This document shows, in pieces, positions 2,147 through 49,800 of a stretch of 64,000 nucleotides of DNA. Both the position numbers and the translations under genes were made by a program. Each line of letters starts with the position of its first letter. Position 1 is the first letter of the stretch. The DNA is from Rhizodiscina lignyota (lineage: Eukaryota). The notes beneath the pieces were generated by a model. The model saw only the letters and a list, made by a program, of their open reading frames with translations, was not told the origin of the DNA and searched no databases. The stretch is taken from positions 682,001-746,000 of the forward strand of contig ML978126.1 of assembly GCA_010015805.1 (NCBI GenBank), given 5' to 3'.

Positions 2147-4710
2147 ATGGCGTCCACATCCGAAGTTTCAATACCGCCTGGCGCACCCGTAGACCCAGTC
2201 CACCCAAATCCATCACGCGGTCGAGGAAGAGGTGGACACGGTGCTGGTAGAGGAGCAGAATCGTCTGGCAATAACTCTGGGCAAGGCGAAAGAGGCAGAA
2301 GCAGGGGAGGTAGAGGACGCGGTGGGGGCAGAAGTCGTGGAGGGTTCGAACACGACTATCGTGGCCGCGAAGCCGCACACACTCGGCCATCTGGAGGTCC
2401 TGGAAGACAATTTGGAGGCCAATTGACGGAGCAGAGTGCCAATACCAATGGGAGGGGGCTTCTTAAGGGGCAAGGGGTCAGTGGAGAGGCGCCCGCAGAG
2501 GAGGACGTAGATGCAGAAGTGTGCTTTATCTGCGCATCTCCGGTGGTTCATAACGCCATTTCGCCCTGCAATCATAGGACGTGCCATATCTGTGCACTAA
2601 GGCTGAGAGCCTTGTACAAGACCAAGGCTTGTGCGCACTGCAGGGTAAGTGTCTTCCCCCTCACAAATGAGAATGAGATTTACTAACAGCATTGAAGACG
2701 AATGCCGACTATGTCATTTTCACCGATTCGCCAGATAAACGCTACGAAGATTTTACAAACGATGACTTTACGAATACTGATGACAATCTTGGCATCAGAT
2801 ACGAGAAGACCGACATATTCGAAGATACGGTCCTGTTGTTACGGTACAACTGTCCGGACCCTAGTTGCGATGTTGCTTGCCTCGGGTGGCCCGATCTTCA
2901 TAGACACGTCAAAAGTGTGCACCACAAGGTCATGTGCGATCTGTGTACGAGAAATAAGAAAGTATTCACACATGAGCATGAGCTTTTCACTCAGAATGAG
3001 CTAAGGAAGCATGAGAGGTTCGGCGACGACAATCCCGGCGCAGAAGACCAGACGGGGTTCAAAGGCCACCCTGAGTGCGGGTTCTGTCGAGAACGTTTTT
3101 ATGGAGATGACGAGCTTTATGCACACTGTCGAGACAAGCATGAGCGATGTCACATTTGCGACCGTCGAGATGGTGGCAGATCTCAGCAATATTATGTTGA
3201 TTACAATTCGTTGGAGGTTCATTTCCGAAAAGACCACTTCCTCTGCCCCGATCAGGAGTGTCTGGAAAAGAAGTTTGTCGTTTTCGAGAACGAGGTGGAC
3301 CTTAAGGCACATCAATTAGAAGCACACCCGAACGGTCTCACCAAAGATGCAAGGCGGGATGCGCGACGTGTCGATATGTCAGGATTCCAATTTCGTGAGC
3401 AGTATCAGCAAGACAATCGCCGTGGAGGTCGCGGTGGTGGAGGCCGTGGTGGTAGAGGCCGCGGACGTCATCCTGACTCTGAACCGCTACCTCAATCAAC
3501 TGCTCAACCCATGCGACGCGATGAACTTGCATACCAGCGTACAATGGCGATTCAGAGCGCCCAGTCGGTCTCAAATCGGTCCTTCGGTGGGCAACTTACA
3601 CCTGCGGAGACTTATGCTGCTCGGCCTCCTGCGCAAGCTGGCAGCCCACCTACTGTCACTGCAACTAGAAGCACTGCTACGGCGAATGAGGACGGGTTTC
3701 CGTCCCTCAGTTCACTCAACATCTCCAACAGTACGTCCGCACCTTCATCACCACCCCAACAAGCAGCGACTCTCACCCCAGCCGAACAAGCCCGTCGTCT
3801 TCGTCATAATGCAGTGACCGAGCGCGCTTCACAACTCCTTCGCGGCGACTCTGCCAAACTGAATCAGTTCCGGACACGCATCTCAGATTACAAATCTTCC
3901 AAAATTACCCCGTCTCAGCTGATCGATGCATTCTTCACCCTCTTCGATACCGGTTCTACGGAGCTCGGTAAGTTGGTGAAAGAGCTTGCCGACATATTCG
4001 AGTTACCAAAGAAGAAAGAAGATCTCCTGAATGCATGGAACAATTGGAAAGCTATTAATGAAGACTATCCAAGTCTACCAGGTCCGACTGGTGTACCTGC
4101 GGGCTCGTCTGCAAACCCAAGCTCATTGGGAAGCGGGGGTATGCGCGTCCTGAAGCTGAAGAGCTCAACAGCTCAATCGGGTCGCTCTGGCCTTGGTCGA
4201 CAGCAGAGCTGGGGTTCGGCTGCGAGCAGTGGGAGCGGCGGTGGAACGTTAAACTTTCCGCCCCTTGGGGCTCCCATTGGGGCTCCAGCCCAACCTGTAA
4301 CTGCCAGCAGAGCTCGTCCGGCATGGTGGGCCAACGCAACAAGCGGGTCTTCGAATACTGCGGATACCAAAGTCGTGGTATCGTCGCGTAACTCGCCCGC
4401 GACTTCGGGGGCTCCCAGTAGGACCGCGACACCGAGGATGAATAGCAGCGAGGCTTTCCCGGCGCTTCCAGCGGCCGCGAAGCCGACCAGCACATACTTC
4501 AGCCCTGGGTATGCAGGAGGTGCCGTGAGGCGAGATGTCGGCTTTGGCGGGGCACCGAGGCCAAATACAGGGAACGTATGGGGAGCCAGTGGTGCTACTG
4601 CAAACGGTAGTAATGCGACTACGGGAGTTGAGGACGCGGTGGAAGAGAGCGTGGGAGGAAAGAAGAAAGGTAAACAGGGAAAAAAGCAGACGCTCATGAA
4701 ATTCGGCTGA
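2147..4710 (+). CDS. HEL2: RING/C2H2 E3 ubiquitin ligase Hel2/ZNF598 (ribosome quality control)
   Basis: RGG-rich N-terminus, RING CFICA...CNHRTCHICALRLRALYKTKACAHCR, intron 2645-2697, C2H2 array including FKGHPECGFC and HERCHIC, C-terminal KKKGKQGKKQTL. Confidence 0.93.
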
Positions 4711-9751: not shown

Positions 9752-10312
9752 TCAAGCAGTAGCATGGTCAACCTCGACGTCCTTGTGCTCTACCTTCGCC
9801 TCTTCAGCCTTTGGAACCACGAGGGACAACAGGCCAGATGAGAGCTTCGCCTTCAACTTTTCCCGATCCACTGCCACGGGAAACTCGAAGGCCCTGACCA
9901 GAGTCCCTATCTCCCTCTCGCGAACAAGCTGATGAACGGCAGTCTCAGGCTCCCCTTCCTTCGGAGCTTCCGCGCCAGCTTCTGGCGCCTCTTTGATCTC
10001 GCTGCGTTCCTTCGTTGCTTCCACAATCAAGGTGCTGCCGCTTAGCCACTTGACTTTGAGATGCTCTTGCGACTGTACGCCGGGCAGCTCGACGTCGACG
10101 TAGTAGTTGTGGAGAGTTTCGCGGATGTCGGCGCGAGGCGCCGGTATCTGGTTTGGAGGAGTGAAGGCATTATGGATGCCATGCGCAAGGCTGTGCCGAG
10201 CGTGCTCTAAAGCATGATGGTGCTCCGGAAAGCTCTTGTGTACAGATGTGATGGTGTATGGAGGAGGAGCGTAGTAGACCGGATACCAATTCATGTTGTC
10301 CATGTAGACCAT
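9752..10312 (-). CDS. Small heat shock protein (HSP20/alpha-crystallin family)
   Basis: PRADIRET..YYVDVELPGV...EREIGTLVRAFEFPVAVDREKLKAKLSSGLLSLVVPK alpha-crystallin domain; intronless. Confidence 0.9.
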   Translation of the reverse strand: MVYMDNMNWYPVYYAPPPYTITSVHKSFPEHHHALEHARHSLAHGIHNAFTPPNQIPAPRADIRETLHNYYVDVELPGVQSQEHLKVKWLSGSTLIVEATKERSEIKEAPEAGAEAPKEGEPETAVHQLVREREIGTLVRAFEFPVAVDREKLKAKLSSGLLSLVVPKAEEAKVEHKDVEVDHATA

Positions 10313-10485
10313 AGATGTTTTGGTTGTTTTCGATTGTTTTCGAAACTCAATTGATTGATGAGACGGATTGAAAGTTGCTTGCGATTTTTGTGAGCTCCAG
10401 CGCGTATTACGCCATTATGTACTTTTTTTCGCGCGTTCTCGCGTCAAGCGGACGCGAACGTCACGAGAGTAGTATGTCCCCGCAG

Positions 10486-10500
10486 CTTCAGGAAGGTTCC
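10486..10500. promoter_or_regulatory. Heat shock element (HSE) upstream of the sHSP gene
   Basis: cTTCagGAAggTTCc is a perfect three-unit nTTCnnGAAnnTTCn, about 175-190 bp upstream of the sHSP start codon. Confidence 0.7.
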
Positions 10501-11940
10501 CTTGAAGCCGTACTGTGAAATGGTTAGAGATAATGCATTCATCTGCTGATACTGGGCTGAGTAATTGCGAATCAGGAGTTGTCACTCCACCAGAAGTGGA
10601 TCAGGCGATGGGCCAGCCCACTCAGCGGCTGCGACGGAAGTCAGACCCCTGCAGGCTGCTCGCGCAGCTTGCTGGCCTGCCAGTAGCAATGCATCCATTT
10701 CTCATATACGCACCTAGAGTCCAATGGCCATCGAGTACCAATTGCAAGTCCGTCACTCTCTCAAACTCGAAATTTCATTGTGGTTAAACATTTATTACAC
10801 GCTATGTGGGATTTTCGAAGCCTACTCCATGAAGTCCGCTCCAAGACAATTGCAAACGCTTGAAGTACGCGATGACTCTTTCCTTTTCCTCCCTCAGTAT
10901 CGCGCAGACGCGAGCGTGCCCATCCGGGCAGGATGTTACCAAGCGTTGTATTCGAGGCCAAGCCTTGTCATATATGACGACGTGCCGGTCGCACATGATA
11001 TTCAGATACTCCCCAATTTGCCACTTGCAGAGTCCCGAACACATTCCATCCACCTCCGGCTCCGCCCACCTTAACCTTCTTTACAATTCTGGACTGCTGA
11101 CTCGACCACTTTACATGGGTAGGTCTGTCAACACGGGCTGAGAGGAGTAGTAGGATAGTTTCTGGAGATGCTGGTGGCTCGGATCCAATGTCGTCTGTAC
11201 GACAGAGTACATTAGGTCCTCTACCATTGTGCCTTTGGTCATGAGAGGCCGATGATTGTTCTCTTTCATGTTAAATAATAACGAGTTGAAGAAGAAATAT
11301 CCAACGATCGAAGTCATTGAGGTGGGGGTCGTTTATATTCAATCTCATCCCTCAGAGCCCCTTGTCGCGGGAAGTTGCGCATCTTCTTTGGAGTGTATAC
11401 TATCACAGCAACAATTTTGGAAAACTTGAGGCTATATTAGAAATGGAGGCCATACACTCAAGCTGCCGGGTAAAGTTGTAACGAATAAGGGCAAGTAGAT
11501 CTTGCTCTTTGAGCCAAGCGAGAGCCTATCTGAAAGTTCGGTTCTGCATCCTTTGGAGCGTCACGCCGTAGCTGTTCAGTGTTTTGAAAGTTGCAGCTGC
11601 TCATATTCCACTTCACTTTCTGCTGATCCTGCTTGTGTTCTCACTCCTACCTGACTTGAGGGGACTGATTGCATCTCCGGACCGACCGCTGTAGGTGTCA
11701 TTGGTAGAATCGCCGGCGTTGGGCGGTTCAGGAGTTCAGTGTTCTTAGCGAATATCTGGCGTTCATGGTGGAATTTTTCATACGAGTATTGATGTGAGGC
11801 TATATGTAAAGGAATGAAAGCGATGGCGATGAGGATGGGGAAGGAGTTGAGAAAGAAAGGTTCCAAGAGCCGGAACAAACTGAAGCGGAGGGGCCTTTAT
11901 CTACTGGTAGAGCAACTCTGGAACTCGACTCTTGGAGAGA

Positions 11941-12130
11941 GATGCCTGAGGAAACTGACGATTGATTGTAAATGGGCGTTCTCGTACGAGTGAAGCACCT
12001 CTTAAAATCAAATCTTGGAGATGGATTGTGAATGGGTGTTCTTGTGTGAGTGAAGCCGCCTTCAAAGTCAAATCCTCACGCGGTGGAGTGATGCCTGATG
12101 GAGCCTACGACCGATTGTGAATACCGTGTT
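11941..12130. repeat. Degenerate direct repeats (60-bp and ~150-bp periods)
   Basis: gattgtRaatgggYgttctYgtRYgagtgaagc...tcaaatc at 11964 and 12024; partial copy at 12113; gatgcctga at 11941 and 12090. Confidence 0.7.
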
Positions 12131-12569
12131 AAATGAAACCCAAAATATTACCGAGTTTCCGGAGCCTGAAAACCTTATCTCTACAGCGGTGATACTATCG
12201 ATAGGGCTTTTGGTGGGCCTTAGCATACCGAATCTGAAAGCACGGTTAGTGTTGACTTCGCCGCGTTTGAGCTGAGCGCACTTGATCAGGACTGCGGCAC
12301 TCGTTAGGATTAGATGAAGGCAACCTCTTCTAACCCACCTTCTCGTCTTTGTCTGAGTGCAGCTAAGCACCTTAAAACAAGAACCTCTTGAATACTCGGG
12401 AACCACAGTAAAGGACCAGTACGGGCTAGAAAATGCAGCAGAGCAGCCTCAGCTCGGCACCAGCTCGCACCAGTGCTTCAACCGCGCCACACACAGCACA
12501 ACAAACCCCAAAAAAAATTAAAAATTGAGATTCGTCGATATACAACCGTAAAGGGATTAAATGAACACC

Positions 12570-12577
12570 AAAAAAAA
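12570..12577 (-). terminator. RNA polymerase III terminator (T8) of tRNA-Arg
   Basis: Run of 8 T on the minus strand 6 nt after the tRNA discriminator base. Confidence 0.75.
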
Positions 12578-12583
12578 TTGTTA

Positions 12584-12718
12584 TGAACACGCCAGGGGTC
12601 GAACCTGGAATCTCCTGATTATCGGAATCGTAGTCAGGCGCCTTGCCATCTATTAAATTGTTAGTCAAACTCTTATTGGTCGTGTAGGGTATGGAGAGAC
12701 AAACTGGGCCACGTGTCC
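12584..12718 (-). tRNA. tRNA-Arg(ACG) with two introns: canonical 8-nt intron (12620-12627) and a 55-nt spliceosomal-type intron in the D-loop (12650-12704)
   Basis: Spliced sequence GGACACG TG GCC CAATGGCAA GGC G CCTGA CTACGAA TCAGG AGATT CCAGG TTCGACC CCTGG CGTGTTC A is 72 nt with all four stems pairing. Anticodon ACG at 12631-12629, B box GGTTCGACCC, T8 terminator. Closely resembles fungal tRNA-Arg(ICG). Confidence 0.9.
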
Positions 12719-14399
12719 GAAAATCTGTGGTTCGGAAACATAATTTTTGAATATAATAGCACGTCATCAAATTGCGTAATGCAGACAAATCCCCGCTCCG
12801 CCCCATCCCGAGCAGTGTCTCAGCACCTCCGCGAGAAACTCCGACGTCAAAATGCTATGTTTCTTAGCCTTTCATACTTTATGTTATGCGTATGCATATA
12901 TCGTTTCAAGCTTTCTTTATCTCGGCCAGCCAGTCCGACTAGCTTTATGAACATATTACCATGCTCGAAATGGCGCTTAATCCTAAGTGCTAGCAGATGT
13001 GCCTGATGATAAGCCTACTGGCTCGTAACACTATTCTTCGCACCGCTATAATTAAGACTAAACGTGCCGCAGAGCTTTTGCCAAAGACCTTCAGGCCCAT
13101 CCGCTACCCGAAGCGAGAGCTTTGCGTGAAAGCCATGATATAAATCATATATCCTTCGTCATGCCAGGTAGTACTATCTCCGAAGGTTCATATGTCTATG
13201 CTCCGGACTAGATTCGAACAATAAACACTTAGGCGGTGAGTATATTCCATTACTGTAGAAGATCCTTAGCACGCGACCAGCGCGGTCTTGCTAAGGTTCG
13301 GTAGGGCGCTGACGAACCCGAAGAATAAGTGAGGAATGCCAAAAGCTAGGTCGTATGTGCCTAATATCGAGGACATAGAGATAGCTAAGGATCTCTCAGC
13401 CCACGTACCGAAAAGCAATACAATCTATACCTACGATTATCAAGGACTCAGCGATGTTGATATGACGGCACTCCGTTTAGAGCATACGGGCCGAATGCGC
13501 GGTCAGCTCAGGACGATGTTCAATCACATGAATTTGACGCAATTCGATACCGATAGTCATGGGAACAGCTTAACGACTTGCTCGATGAATAACTATGCGC
13601 TTACAAAAAGACGGGAAATACATTACTATTGAGTGCAAGTTGTGGAGAATTTTAACTGATATATCAGACCGTCTTATTATCGACGACATACGATTCAGTC
13701 ATGGCATCATTGACAAGCTCCACATTGCCCTGAAAGATCGTACAGATGAGGTTGCCGTCTCTTGCTCTCTAAGCTCGACCATATCGTGGACGAGCGCAAG
13801 AATATCCGCCGTAACTTATGGTCGCGAGTCTGGCTCCAGTGCCGTGGCTTTTCCAAATAAGGGGGATGGGGTCGGGGGCAAAGTCAAGCGAATTTGCAAG
13901 CCTTTTGCAGCAGAATTGGCATTTTGAGGGCTGAGAGACTGCTTATGGAAACTGAAGAAACTCAAGACATAAAGAGCTACACTCGGTAGTCAAGGCTATA
14001 GATAAACTAGGTCTGGCTAAGAGAGTGCATCACCTCTGCAGAACCCTCACATACGGGCCGTCAAGGCTGCTGCACTTCGTGCGACGCTATACTTAAAGCG
14101 GGGCAGAGGACATTTTGTATAATAATAAGTTAAACTTGAGGTTAAGTTGAGATGAGGCGCCAGAGGAGGCACGTACACCTCATCTTCACAGTACTATACT
14201 ACTATATATATACTCCTTCCCTTCGAGCAAGAACTATCTTTCTTATAATAATCTAATCTCTTCAACTTAATTATAATTCTTTCCTTCTTCTGTCTTCTAT
14301 TTCTATAAGAGCACTATCATCATATACCGTCAGCACATCCACATCAGTCACACCGGGAGTCAACTCAAGTCACTCGGTACCAACGAAGGTGTGGTAACT

Positions 14400-37396: not shown

Positions 37397-39248
37397 TTAA
37401 GCTCTAATGTTGGTCAGTTTGATCAGCAGGGGCGACTTCTCCCACGTGTTATACGCCCGGAGCCCAGCGTGTTCGTTCGCAGGATTCCATAATGGTGCTC
37501 CATCCACGAACTCAAGATCAAAGTTCCACAGCAGTGCACCAAGAATCAGCCGAAGCTCAACATAGGTCAGATTGCGTCCAATACAGCCTCTCGGGCCGAG
37601 TGAGAAGGGTTGCGACGCCTTCTTTTGGTCGCTGTCGTACTCGGACGAAAGCCACCGTTCTGGAATGAAGGTATCCGGGTGTGCAAAGTTATTAGGGCTG
37701 TGAGAAGCTGCCCAAGAACTCACACAAACCGATGTCTGCGAAGATAAGCACGAATCTCAATCTATCAACCCGTGGATCAACTTACTCCGCCGGGTATCAT
37801 GTGTCCATCGATGTCTGAACCGCCCTCCGGTACCGTTCTTAGCAAGCCAATCGGCACTGGCGGAAAGATGCGAAGACCCTCTTCGATACACGCGTTCATG
37901 AACGGCAAATTGATCAAGTTGGCAATTACGAGATCCTGTTCCGTTTTGATAGCCCCTCTGATCTCAGCCTTAAGCCGGTCGAAGATTTCCGGATTTCGCA
38001 GCAAGTGGTTTGTCAACCCACAAAGGAGTGTTGCTGTCGTCTCTGATCCGGCAACTCTTTAGTCTGCGAGTCAGTATATTCCAAGTACCAGGAAAGCGGG
38101 TTCATACATGAACAGCGCAGCATTCATCAGGACCTCCTCATCGGAGACTTCGTTCTTCTTTTCTCGCTGCTTCAATATATAGTAGATGAAGTCCCTATGT
38201 TCAGTCTTCCGTGCCATGCGTCGGGTTGTCTTTTCCGTTGAGTTTTGCAGGTGCATTCTTCGCCTCTCACGAACGACACTTGGGATGCACCACATCAGGA
38301 ACTTCTGCATCAAGGTGCCATAAGCGGCGAACCGTCGAGTGGCTTGCTCGATCGCTCCAGACTTGATACTTTCGTAGATTAGCACGACCCATCTTGCGGA
38401 CTCACTGCCCTCTCCTGTACTTCGCTTAATAACAGCACATCATTGGACATTAATATTTTACGCACCTTCCTCAAGACATCCGAACGGCTCTCCGAAGGAC
38501 AGATCTCCAATAATGTCGAATGTGCAGAAGTTGTACCAGCTGACCATATTGGCCGGGGTACCCTCACGTGCAAGGCGGCGCAAATTGTCGATGAACTTAT
38601 TCACGTAGCCTGCAAGGATGTGCTCTTGTTCCATCAATGCCTTTTGGGAAAAGGCATGGGCTAATGCTCGTCGTTGGCGTGGATGATCGGCTTCGTCCGC
38701 CATGGTCAAGTTCGTCGCGCCAGGAATCGCCTCGACAGCGCCAACGTGAATAGGGTCCTTGTTCATGTTGACCCGTCCGATACGGTGTCCATAAATGTCA
38801 TCAAATGCGCGAGGAGTGTTGAAGGCAAGCTCGCTAGTGGTCTGTCAGGCTCTCCGCTAATGAAATTCTGGCTCTGTTACCAGGCACACGCACTTGGGCA
38901 TCACGCGGACGACTGGTCCGTACTTGTCATGCCATATCTTGTATTGAAAGGATATGCGTCCTATCAGAAGGTAGTAGATACTCGGGACCTTTGAAGTATT
39001 AGCCAACGCAGCTGGTTGAAGGAGTGAGAGGATGCCGCACTGGACTAATCGCACACAATATTGGACCCGGATATTTCGCAAGAGGATGAAGTGTGAGTCT
39101 ATACACTATTATTGCGACCCAATATAGCAGAATCTACAGATCATTAGCCTTTTGATTAGAAACGTGCATAATAAGCTAACAGAGGACATACTGCAGCAAC
39201 CGAGCCCAGGGCTGCGACCTTAATCGTGTCATAATCTAAAAGCCCCAT
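37397..39248 (-). CDS. Cytochrome P450 monooxygenase (CYP65/TRI11-like), multi-exon
   Basis: N-terminal TM then HPLAKYPGP, FDIIGDLSFGEPFGCL, AGSETTAT (I-helix), EGLR (ExxR), FIPERW and the heme motif FSLGPRGCIG. Confidence 0.93.
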
Positions 39249-46870: not shown

Positions 46871-49800
46871 TTACCTCAATGCTCCTTCGATCCTCGCTCT
46901 CAACAGTCTCGACTCCTCAGTAGTGACCGGGGTCAAGACATTAGCACCCTCGACATTCTTCAGCGTCTGCAGCACCCCCATCGCATTCTCCTCGCCGCCA
47001 AAGACCAGCTCACCAGCAGCGCCATTCGCCAGACTGTCCGAGAACCAGCGCTGCACAACGTACACGATCCACGCGCCCACAATGCCGCGGTTCCTCCTAT
47101 CATTCCATGGCGCCTCGTTGCCGTAGAACAGGCCCTCGAGCACAACGACCATCGTCTCAAACGGCACCGAGAGATCTGCAAAAAGCGCCGGGACCCACTC
47201 CTGCGGCGGCATTCTGGCCTGGCGATTGTGGCCCAGGACACCGTCACCCTTGAGCACCTGGTCGACGTAGTACTTGGCAGCGAGTGGTAGGACGACCTGG
47301 ATTGCGAACGCCACCTCGCTGAGCTGCAGCTTTGCGCCCATGGTGCGGATTCTTTCGCCGACGCGCTCCCACGGCTGCGCTATTTGGACAGAGTCTGCAG
47401 CCTGCTCGTTGTAGATTTGGACCTGTTCGAATTGGTCCCGCTCGATCAGGCTTTCCCACGTCGCTGCGACATGTGGGAGGTTGCGGTAGTCGCCGATTTG
47501 GTAGATGACAAGGGCGAGGTCTTCGTAGGATGCTTGATCAACGTATTGGTGGTATAGCTTAGCGCAGGATGTTAGCATTAGTCCAATCAAAGTACCGAAA
47601 GTGAATACTCACCTCATCAAGAGTCTTGATCGGTCCATTCAAATCCTTCATAATCTCTGGCCTCTTATCTTTTGTCAGCCTGCGATCGCGGAGCAAACGA
47701 GATAGCAGGTCTTCCTGCAAATTTGCCAGTTCAAGCAGATCGTTGATCTCCCTGATAATCTCTTGTCGGCCCTGCCTGCTTCTACCCATGGAACTGCTCA
47801 ACCCATTCAGGCCTCTGAAGCTGTCTGCTCCGGTTTTTGTGCCGGCATTCGCCTTCGCTCTTGCAAGATACTCGATGCGCGCGTTGAGGCCGAGATTGAA
47901 GCCAGACTTTGCGAGTTGAAGCTGCACAGTTGCAGCCTCGAAGTAGCGAGCGTAATGGGTATAGTACTTCCACAGCAAATCTGCATGCAGGACGTCTTCT
48001 AGGCTCTTGTGCTGCAGGTAGCTAACCACGAAGGGTGACTTGATCTCAAGCAACCGGTCTGGCCAGCCTTGTGCGAGGTACCAGTCGTAAAGGTTCATCT
48101 GGAACAGCTCGTCTGATGAATTGTCGATGATTGAATACGCCTCGCTTCGGCGACGCTGCGCGATCGAAAGCTGTGTGTCGGGTATGTTTTGCGCGCTCGT
48201 GGCCTTGTCCACTTCGGTGATGATGTTATGGATGAGGTCGTAGCATGCCTTCCTCTGTTCGTAGAGTTCTTTCCTGGGATCATCGGTTGGCGATCCATCT
48301 TTCACCCAGCTGCCAGCTCGGTTCGCACGATCAACCTGCTTCGCAACCTCAAGAACGAGTTCGATCGACCCAGCCCAGAACTGCATTTTAACATACGCTT
48401 CGATCCCTTGTCGGAGAACTTCCATCCTAAGCGATCCAGCGACTTTCTCGAACAGACGTAGTGACTCGTTCAGTAGCCTACGCCCAGTCTCTGTGTCCTT
48501 GCCCGCCTCTTCTGCCTTCTTCAACATCTCTTGAGCCTTGAAGACGACAACGTCGTCCGCACTGCAGAAAGTGCCGCACTTCCGTCTCAGTGCCTCTGCT
48601 ACCGTCTCGACATTACTTCCCGCAGCGATGTTCCTGTTGACAATAGCCTTGACCAGCTCTTTCGCCAATTCCTTGCCTTGGGTGCTGGTGAAGAGGGTCT
48701 CGAAGGTGAGCTGCCTCACCGCTTGCCGAGCTTGATCTGAGAGCGACAGGATAATCTCGTCGACTCTGTTGTCGAACAATACCAGCACAAAAGCCATGCC
48801 TTCGATCACGTCCGCAATCAATTTCACCAATGAGCTCAAAGCCTGATGTTCGCCTTGCAGAGCCATCTCCTCTTGCTTGCTTCCAACGCGGCCCAACGCC
48901 TCTGGTCCTGCCAAGCCCTCGATGAAGCTTTTGTTCTGATCCAGAAACTCTTGCAGATTTGTCAGATCTCTCTGAACATCTCTCAGCTTCTCAAGCGGCA
49001 CGGTGGGGTTGACCGTCAGTCCTCCAGTTGGGGTCGCGGTCTCCTGCAATATCGGCGCCTTCCACACGGATCGCACAAGCCTGCCGATGTAAAGCGCCAT
49101 GCCTTCATGCCGTGGAGACGGTCGAACGGTATCGACGGCGGATTCGCCACGATTCAGAGCGTAATTCTCATTGACGATGGCTTTCCCACCCTGTGTAATG
49201 AAGACTTTTCTCGCTGCAGCAACAACCTCTGGGTCAGTCAGGCTCCCTACTCTCGCACCATCAGTGCTGACATCCAAAGCCTGGCCACATGTCACAGCGA
49301 GTGTAGTTGCGATGGTCTCGGCACGACCATAGAAGCGGACGAATGAGTTGACTGCGGATTCCAGCGACTCATCATTGATTTTGTGTTGCTTAAGGAGTGT
49401 AGCAAAGATGTCAACCATGCGCCTTCTTCTGATCGTATGAACGCCTGTGTGTGTAAGCACTGCAATCTCAGTTGTAGGCTTGTCGAATTGAACCGCGAGT
49501 TCATTGCCAAATCCTTGCGGGGTAGATGCCGCAGAGAACTCAGCAGTAACGAGACCGATGTCTTGCGCGATACCGCTGATTGAAAGCGTCATGCCGGTTT
49601 CAATGAACTTGGCGCCTTGTAATGTGTCCGAGCGTCCTGCTATCCGTCCCGTATCGGGAGCTGAGATGAAGAGATTGTCCATGGTGTTGTTGCCTTGGTT
49701 AAAGAGGTCGAAGAAGAAGCCCGGAGCGAAGCGAGCACTGCTCTGTGTGCCGGTGAGATAGCGAGAGTTCGTGTCGACAAGTTGATTCTGTCCATAAATA

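Follow-up and report, generated by a model that had tools for sequence, protein, structure and literature searches.

A probable spliceosomal-type intron sequence in the D-loop of an otherwise intact tRNA-Arg(ACG) gene

The interrupted tRNA gene and its surroundings

The window analyzed here, meaning the whole 64-kb stretch of DNA, was found to encode a Velvet factor, a protein with a fungal transcription factor domain, a Nup170-like nucleoporin, and PIG-N. The Atlas matches of the Velvet protein were from Ascomycota, and the window is assigned to a filamentous ascomycete. A scan of the window for T-arm-like elements (G53, T-loop, C61, and a 5-bp stem) returned exactly one, and this lay in a tRNA-Arg(ACG) gene on the minus strand, the features of which are listed in Table 1. 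The gene was located within approximately 2.9 kb lacking recognizable coding sequence (10415-13332), with an Hsp20 gene on one side (minus strand, 9752-10414) and unassigned ORFs on the other, and was positioned approximately 2.2 kb upstream of the Hsp20 gene in the same orientation. Pfam searches of the ORFs around the tRNA gene gave nothing but Hsp20 at 9752-10414. The region 12450-12850 was covered by a single 44,480-nt contig of run X1 with 0 differences and no joints, although the window itself may derive from X1. At 85% likeness, the X1 contigs yielded no paralogous pieces.

Table 1. Features of the interrupted tRNA-Arg(ACG) gene and its flanks, in window coordinates
Feature	Position	Strand	Remarks
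Interrupted tRNA-Arg(ACG) gene, whole	12584..12718	(-)	135 nt; from reading of the sequence and ARAGORN on the joined exons
TATA-like element TATTATAT	12751..12758	(-)	At -40 to -33, upstream of the tRNA gene
Exon 1	12705..12718	(-)	14 nt; acceptor 5' strand, U8, G9, D-stem 5' strand, C13, A14
Insert, probable spliceosomal-type intron	12650..12704	(-)	55 nt; D-loop, between tRNA positions A14 and A15
5' splice-site-like hexamer GTTTGT	12699..12704	(-)	From the sequence; absent from the 12 local introns
Branch-site-like GACTAAC	12660..12666	(-)	Followed by 10 nt; branch A at 12661, 11 nt to intron end
3' splice-site-like TAG	12650..12652	(-)	Its AG is the first AG past the branch motif
Exon 2	12584..12649	(-)	66 nt including the 8-nt intron
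Exon 2a	12628..12649	(-)	D-loop remainder, D-stem 3' strand, anticodon stem 5' strand, loop to A37; anticodon ACG
Intron at the canonical 37/38 site	12620..12627	(-)	8 nt; directly after A37
Exon 2b	12584..12619	(-)	A38, anticodon stem 3' strand, variable loop, T-arm, acceptor 3' strand, discriminator A
B box	12595-12605	(-)	Within the T-arm of exon 2b
T8 run, Pol III terminator-like	12570..12577	(-)	Starts 7 nt past the discriminator

Cutting by coordinates reproduced the split gene of the original prediction in both sequence and position, together with the signals that had been described for the insert (a GTTTGT start, GACTAAC placed 10 nt from the end, and a terminal TAG). With the 55-nt insert removed, the predicted exon junction reads GGCCCA joined to ATGGCAAGG. 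The intact 72-nt cloverleaf expected after removal was borne out: all 20 pairs of the doubly spliced product were standard, one of them being G-U, and ARAGORN named the product Arg(acg). Exon 1 paired 7/7 with the 3' end of the tRNA gene, and no further damage to the tRNA body was found outside the 55-nt insert.

It had also been claimed that tRNA finders would miss such a gene, and a comparison before and after in-silico removal had been suggested as a check. Both points were upheld. ARAGORN found 0 tRNA genes in the full 64-kb window, with the intron search either on or off, and Rfam gave no match in the window at the gathering score. At a loose E-value threshold (E up to 10), Rfam reported a 14.9-bit tRNA match covering the 3' part of the gene only and, outside the tRNA gene, an unrelated 14.4-bit match to a microRNA family at 12892-12979 (+). 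After the 55 nt were cut out by coordinates, tRNA-Arg(acg) was called by ARAGORN; cutting out both the 55 nt and the 8-nt intron at 37/38 gave a clean 72-base cloverleaf. No gene was found by ARAGORN when the 8-nt intron alone was cut out and the 55 nt were kept. The insert therefore had to be taken out before a cloverleaf with the conserved positions and the anticodon was obtained.

While the insert is present, the sequence of the A-box region is TGGCCCAGTTTG; in the mature tRNA it is TGGCCCAATGGC. The A box is split by the insert, the first bases of which keep the box nearly intact, the GT of the intron preserving the usual ...AGT of the A box consensus. The B box itself is intact, and its start is shifted from position 51 to position 114 in the precursor, so that the offset from the start of the A box (position 8) to the start of the B box increases from 43 to 106 nt. 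T runs act as stop signals for Pol III. The precursor contained T runs of 3 at most, meaning that none of 4 or more occurs in the insert, and Pol III could therefore read through; runs of T4-T5 were held by 3 of the 12 local mRNA introns described below. Upstream TATA boxes are described as having a role in fungal tRNA genes in PMC3978253.

Uninterrupted relatives in metagenomes

A metagenome scan with the T-arm as the pattern returned 72 matches at 69 loci, a mix of bacterial tRNA-Gln, eukaryotic tRNA-Arg(ACG), and others. CTACG was located upstream in 44 of the 72 matches (Arg(ACG)-like), and TGGCCCAATGG was present in 32 of these 44. An 18-nt D-arm string was found uninterrupted in seven tRNA-Arg(ACG) loci (L010, L020, L023, L024, L041, L052, and L059). 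The window shows this string only after removal of the insert, in agreement with the claim of the original prediction that precise removal restores a conserved D-arm. The same seven loci carry ordinary introns of 21-31 nt at 37/38, and hence the 8-nt intron is at a site where tRNA-Arg(ACG) commonly has one. Its length falls inside the range of 6-133 nt given in PMC4090602 for eukaryotes.

The doubly spliced product was identical at 68/72 positions to L010 and L024, both fungal-like and with an uninterrupted D-loop, and at 63/72 positions to the other five loci. All 4 differences from L010 and L024 were located in stems, where pairing was kept or improved: one was a two-sided replacement of C-G by A-T, while a T-T mismatch was replaced by A-T and T-G by C-G. 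No relative with a split D-loop was present among the 72 metagenome matches, including the 44 that were Arg(ACG)-like.

The insert beside local mRNA introns and other intron classes

For comparison with mRNA introns of the same window, GT..AG combinations were collected that joined open frames and broke them if retained. This gave 419 combinations, a census too noisy by itself. A branch motif was present in 70 of the 419, and from these, 12 introns that were flanked by long frames and had a plausible 5' site were picked by hand, a selection that relies on the same signals and is therefore partly circular. The 55-nt length of the tRNA insert lay within the range of the 12 local introns (48-70 nt, median 54.5), as did its distance of 11 nt from the branch A to the intron end (10-14 nt, mode 11) and its G+C of 0.36 (0.35-0.48, with 0.505 for the window). 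The 3' ends of the local introns were CAG in 8 cases, TAG in 2, and AAG in 2, with TAG in the insert. The 5' site GTTTGT, on the other hand, was found in 0/12 ORF-supported local introns. The insert has T at both +3 and +4 and keeps the G at +5; T at +3 occurs in no local intron of the 12, which makes the 5' site the weak point of the insert. The usual exon-side consensus at a 5' splice site is AG, and the exon side of the insert is CCA, unlike this consensus. The original statement that the signals of the insert match those of the mRNA introns of the window thus stood for length, branch site, branch distance, and 3' end, but not for the 5' site.

By the features that define a spliceosomal U2-type GT-AG intron, the insert has the boundary signals, the branch site at its proper distance, and the length and composition of the class. 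Its host is not of the Pol II type, since the gene contains A and B boxes of the tRNA type, ends at a T8 terminator, and is not overlapped by a coding gene.

Two ORF-supported introns of the window, at 2645-2697 (+) in a ZNF598-like gene and at 47558-47612 (-) in the Nup170-like gene, apparently end in AAG rather than YAG.

The frequency with which such signals arise by chance was examined in two ways. A loose intron-motif pattern occurred 53 times in the window, compared with 60-100 times in 10 mononucleotide shuffles. The motif-only census was not enriched over shuffles, so finding such a pattern somewhere in the window means nothing, and the census was dropped as evidence. In the second approach, all 127,892 55-mers of the window (both strands) were tested for GTNNGT at the start, a CTRAY whose A lies 8-20 nt before the end, and a terminal YAG, the strict form of the test requiring CTAAC. 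The loose test was passed by 2 of the 127,892 55-mers, and the strict test by 1, the tRNA insert itself. What is rare is the coincidence of tRNA-defined boundaries with GT...branch...AG, not the motifs as such. Moving the boundaries of the insert alters the product, and the GT-AG boundaries are those that yield the D-loop of the relatives.

The only other 55-mer to pass the loose test, at 38008-38062 (+), also starts with GTTTGT and ends in TAG. It contains CTCTGAT with the A 16 nt from the end, is flanked by short frames of 55 and 39 codons in phase 0, and showed no sequence likeness to the tRNA insert.

Folding of exon 1 together with the insert gave -6.3 kcal/mol, versus -13.2 +/- 2.6 for shuffles (z = +2.68). 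All 200 of 200 shuffles folded at least as well, indicating that the insert is unstructured. In the centroid structure of the whole precursor, the insert was likewise unpaired, and the acceptor, anticodon, and T stems formed.

Other classes of intron were considered and rejected. An intron of the TSEN/EndA type needs a bulge-helix-bulge, in which a 4-bp helix lies between two 3-nt bulges. When the last bases of exon 1 were tested against the last bases of the intron in 16 offset combinations, the best result was 2/4 pairs, and the endonuclease-type reading is therefore unsupported; the intron tail consists of A/T only, and the exon ends in GGCCCA. Self-splicing introns of group I or group II have a conserved core of hundreds of nucleotides, for which an insert of 55 nt is far too short, and no Rfam intron family was matched at E up to 10. 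The view of the original prediction that the insert is of the spliceosomal and not the tRNA type was accordingly sustained by its signals, size, and composition, by the missing bulge-helix-bulge, and by its lack of structure.

Readings of the locus, precedent, and gene calls

The data very strongly support that the insert is a spliceosomal-type intron sequence set without a scar in a Pol III tRNA gene that is otherwise intact. It is highly improbable that it is instead a noncanonical tRNA intron cut by the tRNA splicing endonuclease at a bulge-helix-bulge, or by another nuclease, with GT...AG being coincidental. Bulge-helix-bulge introns in the D- or T-arm do exist in Cyanidioschyzon merolae, Chondrus crispus, and nucleomorphs, according to passages of PMC3978253, PMC13578239, and PMC4090602, but here no more than 2/4 pairs were obtained over the 16 offset combinations, with an A/T-only intron tail facing GGCCCA; the insert folded worse than 200/200 shuffles, and the splice signals would have to coincide by a chance of approximately 1 in 60,000-130,000. 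That filler DNA or an assembly error resembles an intron by chance is scarcely credible. Loose intron-like patterns are indeed common, with 53 in the window and no excess over shuffles, but a match to the exact tRNA boundaries is rare (2/127,892). Exon 1, moreover, matches the D-arm of the relatives and pairs 7/7 with the 3' end, and the X1 contig, which may be the window's own source, agrees with 0 differences.

As to how a spliceosomal-type intron could have arrived, an excised mRNA intron may have been reverse-spliced into an abundant nuclear pre-tRNA, and the product may have been copied to DNA and recombined into the tRNA gene. Reverse splicing with recombination is the route proposed for fungal U6 introns in a passage of PMC5855946. 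The insert might also be a copy of a proliferating introner-like element that was inserted at the DNA level, a reading that concerns origin, would fit a live or a dead gene, and is considered very unlikely. Introner-like elements are known in some ascomycetes, but no second copy of the insert was found within the 64-kb window, where the best other match was 11 nt. In addition, the insert showed no relatedness when aligned with 11 other short introns or candidates of the window, and there was no target-site duplication in the sequence.

If the gene is live, Pol III would still transcribe it, given the nearly intact A box, the intact B box and T8, and the absence of any T run of 4 or more. In the nucleus, the three splice signals of the unfolded insert (5' site, branch site, and 3' site) would be exposed, and the insert would be taken out by the spliceosome. 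The elbow between the D-loop and the T-loop could form only after this removal, after which export of the tRNA would become possible and the 8-nt intron could be cut by TSEN. Judged from the sequence, a putatively live gene, with a transcript processed by the spliceosome first and then by TSEN, has nearly an even chance of being the correct reading, and it is suggested a little more tentatively that the product would be a nuclear tRNA dependent for its maturation on both eukaryotic splicing systems, one after the other, the tRNA endonuclease and ligase taking out the 37/38 intron in the second step. Such removal is favored in that all other parts of the gene are intact, the junction is scarless, T runs are lacking, and the structure is open. 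Against it is a 5' exon of just 14 nt plus leader, on an uncapped Pol III transcript.

A recently disabled copy fits the data about as well as removal by the spliceosome and then TSEN. In that case, the intron would have landed in one redundant tRNA-Arg(ACG) gene, either by reverse splicing and retro-recombination or by DNA-level intron transposition, leaving a young pseudogene in which the insert is unremoved or which is not usefully transcribed. We regard this as quite possible while stopping short of calling it probable. In fungi, tRNA-Arg(ACG) is usually multicopy, and the gene may be dispensable. A dead gene is also favored by the 5' site that departs from the local consensus, the 14-nt first exon, the split A box with its A-to-B offset extended from 43 to 106 nt, and the absence of the insert from relatives (0/72 metagenome matches). 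A short insertion in the D- or T-arm of one of many synonymous eukaryotic tRNA genes is, by the standard reading given in PMC4090602, the mark of a pseudogene. Everything but the insert is intact, however, including the 20/20 pairs, the B box, the terminator, the TATA-like element, and the three splice signals, and under neutrality the disabling event must therefore be very recent. The scarlessness of the insertion and the lack of Pol III-stopping T runs of 4 or more in the insert similarly argue against a disabled copy.

The two classes of intron are kept apart in textbooks and recent reviews (PMC5855946 and PMC4090602): spliceosomal introns belong to mRNAs and other Pol II transcripts, with rare snRNA and rRNA cases, and tRNA introns are cut by TSEN. 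A full-text literature search, with most subscription journals outside it, uncovered no paper describing a tRNA gene with a spliceosomal intron. The only U6 gene in S. pombe, which is a Pol III gene, contains an intron that the spliceosome excises and that has the B box inside it (PMC5855946). The present locus resembles fungal U6 in having a short GT...branch...AG intron within a small, highly structured Pol III noncoding RNA gene, in the reverse splicing proposed as its origin, and in having a portion of the internal promoter inside or beside the intron (the B box in S. pombe, while here the first bases of the intron complete the A box). Unlike U6, the tRNA host is no component of the spliceosome and is not known near its catalytic center, the 5' exon is just 14 nt long, a second, TSEN-type intron lies within the same gene, and removal is here a prediction from sequence.

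Spliceosomal introns have also been described in the U1, U2, and U5 snRNA genes of Rhodotorula hasegawae and in ascomycete rRNA genes (PMC5855946, in a passage citing Takahashi 1993, 1996, and Bhattacharya 2000). These share with the present case a spliceosomal-type intron in a fungal noncoding RNA gene, rRNA not being a Pol II transcript, but they differ in host RNA and polymerase, and none is a tRNA. The introns of C. merolae, Chondrus crispus, and nucleomorphs are similar in combining a D-loop site with a 37/38 intron in a nuclear tRNA gene, and they too are missed by standard finders. Those introns, however, are short or bulge-helix-bulge and are cut by the tRNA endonuclease, whereas the insert described here has spliceosomal signals and no bulge-helix-bulge. 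As in tRNA pseudogenes with a D- or T-arm insertion, there is a single D-loop insertion and the gene is rejected by finders; unlike in such pseudogenes, the boundaries coincide exactly with a full set of splice signals, and no other part of the gene is damaged.

If removal by the spliceosome and then TSEN does occur, the locus would be the first tRNA gene with a spliceosomal intron, and the spliceosome would be able to act on a pre-tRNA made by Pol III. It would also mean that abundant nonspliceosomal RNAs can be targets of intron transposition and that there is a class of functional tRNA genes scored as absent or as pseudogenes by finders, making standard tRNA gene counts too low. Even a dead copy would record, cleanly and without a scar, the arrival of a spliceosomal intron in a Pol III gene and would bear on intron gain.

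For 6 of the 72 metagenome matches, no tRNA was called by ARAGORN. Four of these (L001, L042, L043, and L054) were cut by contig ends, and the others were L022 and L060. L022 has a tRNA-like D-arm and T-arm, yet no gene was called; in L060, tandem copies of an approximately 18-nt unit precede the T-arm in place of the 5' part of a tRNA. With the intron search on, ARAGORN misnamed Arg(ACG) as tRNA-Gly (gcc or acc) plus an intron at eight loci (L020, L023, L041, L059, L008, L032, L067, and L011). Examined by eye, the same eight loci have CTACG in the anticodon loop and an intron of 31-88 nt at or next to the usual site, and those with long introns look alga-like.
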